From assembly GCA_004022145.1 (NCBI GenBank), contig RCNU01000006.1: a DNA stretch of 64,000 nt; one strand, given 5' to 3'. The notes beneath the pieces are model-generated. The model was not told the origin of the DNA. It was given only the letters and a program-made list of their open reading frames with translations, and did not search any database. The stretch's first letter is position 1, and every line of letters starts with the position of its first letter. Position numbers and translations under genes: made by a program. The stretch is from Paecilomyces variotii (taxonomy: Eukaryota). Positions 29,201-30,808 of the stretch are shown here, in pieces.

Positions 29201-30721
29201 CTCGAAAACCTCTAGGGGTCCGAAAATCACCACGCACAAAACCGGCTAGATCGGGTGAGCTTTGTACCTACCTAGTCTACTCCAGACTTGTGCTTCGTTC
29301 AGAAAAGCCACGATCGACGATCGATGCAGGGGCTTGCTGTTCTCAGAATACCAGCAAGTAATATTCATTGGCCTTTGTATGTCCGAGAATGAACCCTGTC
29401 CGCATGTGCAGGTCCCCCTATCTGGGATGATTATTGATTATCATTATTACTATTATTATTATTTTATATTTTTTTGGCCTCCAGAAGAGCTCATAGATAG
29501 GAAGGTAACTCGGACAAATTGCAATTTCTGACAAAGCATTGGCTAGGAAGCTAAGCAGACTGAAAACAGAATAGCCGATGAGGCCGTCAGAGAAGTGACT
29601 GAACCGTTCGTTATCCCGACCCACCCCCTGGGGAAAAGCGATGATTTTACTCCGGCGTATTATTCTTCTAACCTCTTGGCCATGACCCTAACTATCTGAC
29701 CCCTGAAATCTGAAGAGGCTACCAGGCTGAAACCTGACCGGCCCAGTCCGAATTGATCCCGGCTCTCGGGATTGAGCCAGCATGGAAAGTTTTGGTCTCT
29801 CAGCCGCCCCCCGGTTTGATTAGGTTTTGGCGTTTTACTCTAGATACACTGGCAGGTCGTTGTCGTCACAACTTTCCCCTGGCACCGGAGAAGACCGATC
29901 AGGGCCAGATTTCCATTGATTTTGTGTGTCGGGGGCTGTTTGTGTCTGTGTGTGTGTGTGGCATGGTCCAGAAGTCGATTACGGCTATTCTTCCATGGGT
30001 TGAGGGCTAGTCGATGGTATTCCATGCCGGTCATCGAGGGCGTTCCCCCAGCGAGGTCATGCGTTGCGGACTGTGTATCTATTCTAGCCATTCTAGGATG
30101 CGCTGGAGCCGCGGCGTCCGTGTCCGTTCTTTCAGGGTTCTTCCTTTTCGATCTAGTCGGACGGTGCGGTGAAGTGAATCAACTGCTGGCCCAGCGGGTC
30201 GCCTTCTAGATTTTTCGTTTGGCCTTGCCGTCAAGGAGAGAGACCAAATGGGGAATAAGGCAGCTAATCACAATTTGGAGATATCCGGCGCTTCTACTCC
30301 TTCAACTACGTCACGAGCACTGGCTGGGATCCGCCGTCGCCTGGGCTGTCGTTCACGCCGTTCCCCTTGGGTGGAGCATAGCGCCATTCTCATGGAGGAC
30401 AAGGATGTACACGGGTGGTAGCTTGGATTTCCTGGCCAGCTCCAACGGTGGGAAGGGGTTCGGACCATAAATATCCTTTCAGCCTCTTGCTCGCAGTGAC
30501 TTTTCGATTTTCTCAAACACGAGTTTATTATTATTACTCTACAAAGCTGAAGAAGACCAACTCGCTTCTCCCGAACCAGCACTCATCATCCAAGCTCTAT
30601 ATATCTTAATACCTACAATCATCTACCCATCCATCAACCTATACCTCTTCCGTTGAGAGGAAGCATACAGAGAGCTCTTTTTGAATCCAACCAGATTCCG
30701 CATCACACAACAACAACAACC

Positions 30722-30808
30722 ATGCCTTCAGTCGGAAACTCCAACTCTCAGTTCCCTCCCTGCCCGGGACCCCCTCCCAAGGGACCTCTCCCGCCTCTCC
30801 CCAAGTGA
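30722..30808 (+). CDS. Putative 28-aa proline-rich micropeptide MPSVGNSNSQFPPCPGPPPKGPLPPLPK
   Basis: ATG in CAACAACAACC-ATG context, TATATAT at 30598, C-ending codons common; below the ORF-track cutoff. Confidence 0.6.
   Translation: MPSVGNSNSQFPPCPGPPPKGPLPPLPK

Follow-up and report, generated by a model that had tools for sequence, protein, structure and literature searches.

Background

Micropeptides specified by small open reading frames (ORFs) have been recognized on RNAs that were taken for non-coding, as in the case of Drosophila tarsal-less/pri and vertebrate myoregulin. Another short peptide, the fungal arginine attenuator peptide of about 24 amino acids (aa), is the conserved product of an upstream ORF (uORF) of arg-2/CPA1. 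Proline-rich ligands of SH3 domains are a further point of reference; their consensus is +xPhiPxPhiP for class I and PhiPxPhiPx+ for class II, and RPLPPLP is the model class I peptide. In the present study, we analyzed a 64,000-nt stretch of DNA from Paecilomyces variotii (contig RCNU01000006.1 of the assembly GCA_004022145.1; the whole stretch is hereafter called the window), with a focus on a small ORF at 30722..30808 on the plus strand, which consists of 28 codons and a TGA stop codon and specifies the product MPSVGNSNSQFPPCPGPPPKGPLPPLPK. This coding sequence is documented by the list of ORFs, by DNA similarity and by RNA contigs, and, judging from the comparisons described below, it is very probably a real gene for a micropeptide.

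Like tarsal-less/pri and myoregulin, it is a tiny unannotated ORF on an RNA without other coding potential, and it was recognized by conservation of the amino acids. The peptides of those systems are transmembrane helices or act on specific enzymes and show no sequence relation to the present family, whose members would be soluble polyproline peptides restricted, as far as seen, to Pezizomycotina. The arginine attenuator peptide resembles the family in its length, its conservation at the peptide level and the use of the first AUG of the leader. Unlike the attenuator uORF, however, the small ORF is not followed by a conserved main ORF, ATGs are frequent past its stop codon, and the RNA of the window ends at a poly(A) site without a conserved ORF. 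As for the SH3 ligands, 90 of 100 loci conform to class I with the family segment R-P-L-P-P-[LVI]-P, and three more do so with K in place of R; the consensus, however, defines a motif class and not a gene family, and the peptide of the window strictly fits neither class. The genes form a new family within a known kind, that of conserved micropeptide genes, with the unusual property that the whole product would be a docking motif.

Results and discussion

Conservation of the small ORF

Taken by itself, an ORF of 28 aa is at the chance level here. The stretch of 26254-33117 contains 47 ATG-initiated ORFs of at least 28 aa, compared with 42.3±5.7 in shuffled sequences, and the region of 25500-34000 is overlapped by 90 ATG-initiated ORFs of at least 20 aa. 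The plus strand of this gene desert is C-rich (GC skew of -0.108 and -0.173), a composition that is on its own a source of proline codons. What raises the ORF over chance is its conservation in other genomes. The codon pattern of PCPGPPPxxPLPPxP occurs once in the window, where the expected number is 0. A search with this pattern had been proposed in the original prediction; when it was run, with any base allowed at the wobble positions, against a metagenome contig collection, at least 115 loci were found. The identical codon pattern gave four matches in 596 gigabases of prokaryote genomes, all in unrelated frames and none with the small-ORF layout, and three of the four lie in DNA of 72-78% G+C.

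The pattern forces the residues of the motif, and only the features that it does not force were counted as evidence. An in-frame ATG follows the previous stop codon in 115 of 116 instances (the listed loci and the window), the sole miss being at a contig edge, and a stop codon is found one to three codons past the motif in 113 of the 116; in 109 of 115, the ORF counted from the proximal ATG has a length of 21-30 aa. For the unforced positions, 100 loci were scored, no two of them alike over the ORF ±60 nt. All of these loci have a purine at position -3 of the start codon (A in 83), and 86 have C at -4. The residue just before the pattern is Pro in 100/100, with all four codons in use, and one position further towards the N-terminus L, F, Y or I is found, again in 100/100. 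Residue 2 of the peptide, also not forced by the pattern, is Pro in 75. At the second free position of the pattern, Arg occurs in 90 loci and is encoded by AGG (23), CGT (18), CGG (15), CGC (14), AGA (11) and CGA (9); since the residue is thus spread over all six codons, selection on the amino acid is the sole explanation. All three stop codons are used (TAA in 43, TAG in 35 and TGA in 22 loci).

The bias towards synonymous changes that the original prediction had suggested looking for was evident in the comparison with the nearest relatives. Between the window and the closest locus (L048), 15 codons are identical, 12 differ synonymously and one non-synonymously; the corresponding numbers for L080 are 12, 14 and one. 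The weight of these comparisons lies in the codons of the N-terminal and x positions, those imposed by the search pattern being discounted. The flanks of 100 nt on each side show 43-53% identity in global alignment between the window and these nearest relatives, which is the random level, and when 24000-36000 was compared by blastn with the listed metagenome loci, the sole matching part was 30702-30817 (26 loci). Where loci share one and the same peptide, 26 of 29, 21 of 26 and 15 of 15 variable sites are at the third codon position. These comparisons indicate that selection bears on the amino acids and not on the bases, and that the reading frame, start and stop are conserved across species while the flanks diverge. 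The metagenome loci belong to numerous contig series of different names, and the same peptide occurs in independently annotated genomes.

Distribution and variation of the family

From 59 distinct peptides we built a profile, which retrieved nine proteins (12-91 aa) from a database of 5.8 billion clusters and 68 proteins at E <= 0.001 from 1.84 billion representatives. Altogether, 69 database proteins were obtained. Cys is present in 66 of them, 53 end no more than three residues past the motif, and in nearly all a Met is located 4-11 residues ahead of it. The long models look like upstream frames through non-coding DNA or models overrunning the stop codon. The source names are all "hypothetical" or "uncharacterized" except for two short Fusarium oxysporum models ("Enolase" and "putative AC9 transposase"), which evidently are mis-named. 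In a collection of 15 billion proteins, the gene is represented by just a few "hypothetical" models, the majority of them with erroneous extensions, and the exact 28-aa peptide of the window is absent.

The named carriers include Colletotrichum asianum, Fusarium oxysporum, Biscogniauxia mediterranea, Morchella sextelata, Thermoascus crustaceus, Aspergillus nomiae, Ascobolus immersus, Lichina confinis, Sodiomyces alkalinus, Daldinia grandis and Drechslerella dactyloides. We take these to represent Orbiliomycetes, Pezizomycetes, Eurotiomycetes, Sordariomycetes and Lichinomycetes, that is, the breadth of Pezizomycotina. No named match was found outside Pezizomycotina, and most matches are nameless. 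The family consensus is M-P-x(3-9)-[LFYI]-P-P-C-P-G-P-P-P-x-R-P-L-P-P-[LVIT]-P-[KST]-x(0-2)-stop, with lengths of 21-34 aa, or 49-52 aa in members of the Pezizomycetes type. Ser replaces Cys in the Lichina and Drechslerella copies, and some of the homologues found by the profile have PLPAxP.

Two longer homologues deserve separate mention. P0023 (108 aa) has a signal-like N-terminus and two copies of the motif without Cys (RQLPPAPGPPPTRSLPPI and RQLPPTPGPPPSRPLPPFA), between which are basic sites that resemble cleavage sites; this protein may be either a relative that is secreted and processed or a look-alike by chance. P0078 (236 aa) is the only profile match whose motif (NLPPCPGPPPSQPLPPTP) is embedded in a longer sequence of protein-like character, the C-terminal part of which looks structured, and it might present the motif in an ancestral or fused context. 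A Pfam search of the odd longer homologues, including P0078, gave nothing but one sub-threshold match to FerA.

Leader and start codon

Upstream of the start codon, 314 nt (30408..30721, plus strand; G content of 15.9%) are free of ATG and are presumed to be the 5' untranslated region (UTR) or part of it. The CA-rich leader closes with ...CACACAACAACAACAACC-ATG (ACAACAACAACAACC-ATG). An ACA/CAA repeat just 5' of the start codon (30703..30719, plus strand) provides the A at -3 and the C at -4; its length varies between strains, an additional ACA being inserted behind 30706 in the RNA run X9.

Such a leader is a feature of the family. The nearest upstream ATG is at a median distance of 268 nt in 89 loci, 24 of which are cut by the contig end or the flank, so that the true value is larger; for the other ATGs of the same loci the median is 35 nt (n=2615). 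In 74 of 86 loci the last 200 nt before the start contain no ATG, whereas 500 shuffles gave 20.8 such loci on average and 33 at most, and the leaders contain 20 ATGs as against 59-142 for the remaining five permutations of A, T and G. The G content at -100..-1 is 11.5%, compared with 25.7% in the far flanks, and the ATG-free, G-poor leader typically extends to 200 nt or more in the relatives. Past the stop codon ATG is not avoided, and the next one is found at a median of 32.5 nt. Such avoidance before the start, together with its absence past the stop codon, is characteristic of an mRNA in which the small ORF begins at the first AUG, here in a good context.

The original prediction described a TATATAT element at 30598, a CA-rich leader and a 28-aa ORF up to its stop, and all are present as described (30598-30604 and 30722..30808). 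TATATAT is unlikely to act as the core promoter. Since the ATG-free leader reaches back to 30408, TATATAT (30598..30604, plus strand) probably lies within the transcribed leader and not ahead of it, and it is crossed by RNA contigs from X9 (starting at 30319) and X13 (30029-30702). The RNA cover of the leader begins at 30319 or farther upstream.

Transcription of the locus

For the stretch of 30100-31500, word sampling listed 24 sequencing runs, 20 with a part of the stretch and eight recorded as RNA; RNA-labelled runs from three studies contain 0.36-0.67 of the sampled words. Contigs of four RNA runs (X2, X7, X9 and X13) were aligned to 25500-34500. The ORF is covered colinearly by RNA contigs of runs from four studies, among them contigs from X9 (30319-31127), X2 (29589-31855, without mismatch to the window) and X7 (27962-32195). 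That X2 represents RNA follows from one of its contigs, which is spliced (joint of 25637/25704, GT..AG). A contig from X13 covers 31693-31850 and continues with 13 untemplated A and the adapter. This tail marks a poly(A) end of the plus strand close to 31850, roughly 1 kb downstream of the ORF, and the X2 contig (31855) and a second X9 contig (31211-31869) also end near this site. Among the joints listed, none is at the stop codon, and the contigs of X2, X7 and X9 are colinear through 30808; thus the locus is transcribed and not spliced at the ORF.

The presumed 3' UTR of about 1 kb (30809..31850, plus strand), delimited by the RNA contigs and the poly(A) site, holds no conserved ORF, and this transcribed stretch has no similarity to the other listed loci. 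The ORFs at 31366-31665 and 31422-31787 were considered as a main ORF and rejected; they have no similarity elsewhere, and their frames are broken by indels between strains, among which 31477 (-1), 31507 (+2), 31599, 31692 (+1) and 31713 are listed.

Another X13 contig (30029..30702) has the adapter and 13 T before it, and represents a polyadenylated RNA of the minus strand, which may be antisense to the small ORF or a divergent promoter transcript. The genome has no T run before 30029, and hence the tail is untemplated. This contig stops at the ACA repeat, perhaps merely because of an assembly break. The desert as a whole is far from silent: RNA contigs cover most of 25500-32195, and those of X2 and X7 nearly all of it, which suggests long read-through or overlapping non-coding transcripts. 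One X2 contig leads from the spliced gene at 25.5 kb to 28662. Parts of 28510-30014 and of 32423-32723 have no cover in some of the RNA runs and were left out of the evidence.

Taken together, the original prediction of an unannotated, stand-alone micropeptide gene is strongly supported by the RNA contigs and by the conserved layout and codons of the ORF: both a transcript and, at 115 or more metagenome loci, a conserved ORF were found.

Neighbours, splicing and databases

The next gene begins at 33118, which leaves a desert of 6.9 kb. That this desert has no other intact gene between 26253 and 33118 had also been stated beforehand, and it holds as far as tested. Pfam gave no family for nine ORFs of the desert, nine of its ATG-initiated ORFs have no exact copy in the 15-billion-protein collection, and Rfam and tRNA scans of 24000-36000 gave no match. 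The exact product of the gene at 33118-34026 belongs to a 90%-identity cluster of 12 members, seven of which are named, all as "hypothetical protein [Paecilomyces variotii]".

Two readings in which the small ORF would be part of something larger were rejected. It could have been a first exon with a donor, GTGAAG, at the stop codon; GTRNGY is found there in 4 of 100 loci, compared with 24 of 1655 control windows, in 83 of the 100 loci the stop codon is followed by a purine, and the RNA is colinear. It could also have been the uORF of a conserved gene; no common downstream ORF was found, and the poly(A) site at about 31850 precedes the next gene. An all-against-all comparison of 1679 flank ORFs revealed no family in more than 13 loci, and the 13-locus family overlaps the small ORF itself. 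Pfam matches were obtained for just eight of 82 flank ORFs (the longest 82 of 364 candidates of at least 110 aa), and they differ by lineage: a class I tRNA synthetase about 0.9 kb downstream of the small ORF in L002, L004, L020 and L033, Tom37/GST_C_6 about 1.4 kb downstream in L042 and L055, and a phosphorylase gene in L060. Tom37/GST_C_6 (SAM37-like) is also encoded in the window at 46084-47286 on the plus strand, 15 kb downstream of the small ORF; as in L042 (3356-4039) and L055 (3529-4041), it is on the same strand, and may be a remnant of an old linkage.

None of the 59 family members matched Pfam at E values up to 1, the best match of the profile in the PDB had an E value of 9.3, and an ESM Atlas look-up with P0014 reached no more than 0.76 and 0.75, too low a score to serve as a lead. 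Substrings of the motif were unmatched in 8.4 million full texts, and a word search of the literature found no description of the family, figures and supplements being outside both searches. The main text of a survey of fungal small ORFs (PMC7394265) mentions neither proline nor SH3, and neither this survey nor a passage of PMC12810187 mentions the peptide family.

A proposed polyproline ligand in trans

The explanation that best covers the locus as a whole is a stand-alone micropeptide gene acting in trans as a polyproline ligand, and on balance we lean towards it. The small ORF is presumably translated. None of 61 distinct peptides has a hydrophobic N-terminus; with no signal sequence, and too short and proline-rich to fold, the product would be a free peptide of polyproline-II form in the cytosol, that is, a ligand and nothing else. 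It would offer two tandem PhiPxPhiP cores, [LFYI]PPCP (LPPCP) and LPP[LVIT]P (LPPLP), the second of which would lie between basic residues, with Arg three positions before its first Pro and Lys or Arg one or two after its last Pro. From the motif, an action through some proline-recognition domain seems somewhat probable, and the SH3 domain is a plausible candidate whose assignment is tentative. By docking on SH3 domains, other proline-recognition domains being less likely targets, the peptide may act as a competitor or as a small bivalent adaptor that bridges two sites. The near-invariant Cys might serve for lipidation and membrane attachment, for disulfide pairing or for redox control.

The likeness to class I SH3 ligands noted in the original prediction stands for the family, where the "+" position is R in 90 and K in three of 100 loci; for the window peptide the fit is not strict, Gly being at that position. 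Furthermore, K or R occurs two residues past the last Pro, the class II position, in 52 of the 100 loci. The core varies among loci as PPLP, PPVP, PPIP and PPTP, and in the PLPAxP homologues the position changed from Pro to Ala is the free x of +xPhiPxPhiP.

The Pbs2 kinase of yeast offers the nearest example of such a motif; its motif VNKPLPPLPVAG is reported to bind the SH3 domain of Sho1 (PMC4904012). The shared core is a basic residue followed by PLPPLP, and most family members have RPLPPLPK. The Pbs2 motif is a short stretch of a large kinase, whereas the family motif makes up most of a free-standing product of 21-34 aa and, unlike the Pbs2 motif, has a second conserved block, PhiPPCPGPPP, ahead of it. 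According to a statement in a review, PbsB of Aspergillus nidulans does not have the Pro-rich motif needed for binding to Sho1 (PMC3153207). The SH3 domain of Sho1 in these fungi is thereby a candidate partner, which we offer as a lead only.

Several points weigh against the micropeptide gene and its SH3 role. The invariant Cys, Gly and most of the prolines in the listed metagenome loci are imposed by the search pattern. The peptide of the window has Gly at the class I "+" position with Lys one residue earlier (KGPLPPLPK), and the C-terminal Lys of this peptide falls one residue short of the class II spacing. Other copies of the Eurotiales type also have KG where most copies have xR, which, to judge from the peptides, weakens the SH3 claim for that branch. 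Polyproline is bound by many domains, and the PP and PPP runs equally fit a role in translational stalling. No co-conserved neighbour or partner was found among the flank ORFs examined. As for the RNA, the contigs show neither the strand nor the 5' end of the RNA over the ORF, those from X2 and X7 extend far upstream to where the plus strand carries ATGs, and the polyadenylated minus-strand RNA ending at about 30029 overlaps the leader. A leader, 28 codons and a 3' UTR of about 1 kb would also make an unusual mRNA.

Alternative explanations

One alternative keeps the action in trans and changes the target. The peptide could bind WW (of the PPLP type), profilin, EVH1 or GYF domains, could engage a prolyl hydroxylase as substrate or competitor (C-P-G being an X-Pro-Gly site), or could be a ligand of a Pro/N-degron receptor by its N-terminal Pro. 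Several domain families bind PPLP and poly-Pro; the unforced Pro at residue 2 in 75 loci and the Eurotiales branch, including the window, without the canonical Arg also speak for such a target. The conservation of basic-PhiPxPhiP-basic, with R or K at "+" in 93 of 100 loci, however, fits SH3 ligands best, and the variation of the core from PPLP to PPVP, PPIP or PPTP makes a weak case for a PPLP-specific WW domain. We consider a target other than SH3 rather unlikely. Alternatively, the small ORF may act in cis: the nascent chain with PP and PPP would stall ribosomes without active eIF5A and thereby set the stability or function of a long RNA, the released peptide having no role. The presence of PPCPGPPP and PLPPLP would suit this, a peptide of 21-34 aa is still largely within the ribosome tunnel at termination, and the RNA of the window continues for about 1 kb past the stop without a conserved ORF. 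Moreover, arrest peptides such as the arginine attenuator peptide are likewise conserved at the amino-acid level. Proline stalling alone, however, leaves the conserved Leu, Cys, Gly and Arg unexplained. There is no conserved main ORF to be regulated; the flank families, in at most 13 loci, overlap the small ORF, the Pfam neighbours vary by lineage, and ATGs are not avoided past the stop codon (median of 32.5 nt). Termination-arrest peptides generally hold such a spacing fixed, whereas here the number of codons between the last Pro and the stop ranges from one to three. An action in cis, the main rival of the trans reading, is unlikely in our judgment.

The other two alternatives concern the nature of the sequence itself. 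The number of ORFs in the desert (47 versus 42.3±5.7) and the C-rich plus strand would be expected if the ORF were a chance product of a non-coding tract rich in C, for instance the CT box of a promoter or a UTR, in which the conserved element is DNA or RNA. Such an element would explain neither the conserved start and stop nor an Arg maintained through six codons, and substitutions at the third position are seen at the unforced codons too; ATG is avoided upstream, and the flanks are at the random level. We regard this explanation as already refuted, unless the loci were artefacts of a single assembly, against which their many contig series and the independently annotated genomes speak. A precursor of a secreted or modified peptide, either pheromone-like or like the ribosomally synthesized and post-translationally modified peptides, would be small with one Cys and many Pro, as observed, and P0023 repeats a Cys-less motif behind a signal-like N-terminus. 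The peptides have no hydrophobic N-terminus, however, their core is hyper-conserved and not variable, and no gene for a processing enzyme recurs among the 82 flank ORFs scanned (the longest of 364), which makes a precursor very unlikely.

Other features of the window

Within the desert, about 550 nt at 28138-28692 are open in one frame per strand (184 and 168 aa), without a Pfam match and without an entry in the protein collection. X2 has a low-depth joint there (28660/28727, GT..AG after a shift of 2), and reading across it does not lengthen the ORF; this is probably a spliced non-coding RNA. At 32870-32996, many RNA contigs of all four runs pile up (summed depth of 244 in X7), with dissimilar sequence on either side. 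The segment, which contains a hairpin-like sequence, GGAGTCTGCCTACAGGCAGACCTCC, occurs once in the window and matches neither a tRNA nor an Rfam family; it has the look of a dispersed repeat or of a mobile-element fragment that is transcribed elsewhere too. The stretch of 32380-32680 is of low complexity, with GAGA, TAAGTAAGTA and five CTTG repeats, and X7 and X2 have no RNA at 32423-32723; possibly it is a strain-variable spacer.

Upstream of the desert are a gene with an Asp f 4-like allergen domain and two Ferritin_2 (ferritin-like) ORFs (18194-19186, plus strand; 23465-24136, minus strand; 4378-5127, plus strand). The window contains no SH3 sequence. Its remaining genes are ordinary, and include those for a histone deacetylase, a PEP mutase/ICL family protein, methionyl-tRNA synthetase, a luciferase-like monooxygenase, a ZIP transporter, an APH-family kinase, a sugar transporter and PP2C.

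Conclusions

A possible, more specific scheme is that this Pezizomycotina gene supplies a free-standing bivalent SH3 ligand (LPPCP...RPLPPLPK) for SH3 domains bereft of their classical partner, Sho1 foremost, and that the product is a tunable competitor or bridge of fast turnover in mitogen-activated protein (MAP) kinase and polarity signalling, with eIF5A gating its translation and the Cys determining its placement. In all its parts together, this scheme is improbable and is put forward as a speculation. If the reading of a trans-acting micropeptide is true, the gene would be among the most conserved short genes of filamentous ascomycetes, including Aspergillus, Fusarium, Colletotrichum and Morchella, and would have been overlooked. 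A gene that encodes a docking motif alone would then offer a clear case, found in nature, of regulation through competing motifs. The present gene is small enough to be synthesized, tagged and mutated in a day, so that its function is directly testable. The locus would also serve as a warning that fungal "gene deserts" and "long non-coding RNAs" can hide coding genes, for which the ATG-free, G-poor leader, the purine at -3 and the fixed positions of start and stop could provide a signature to find similar genes.

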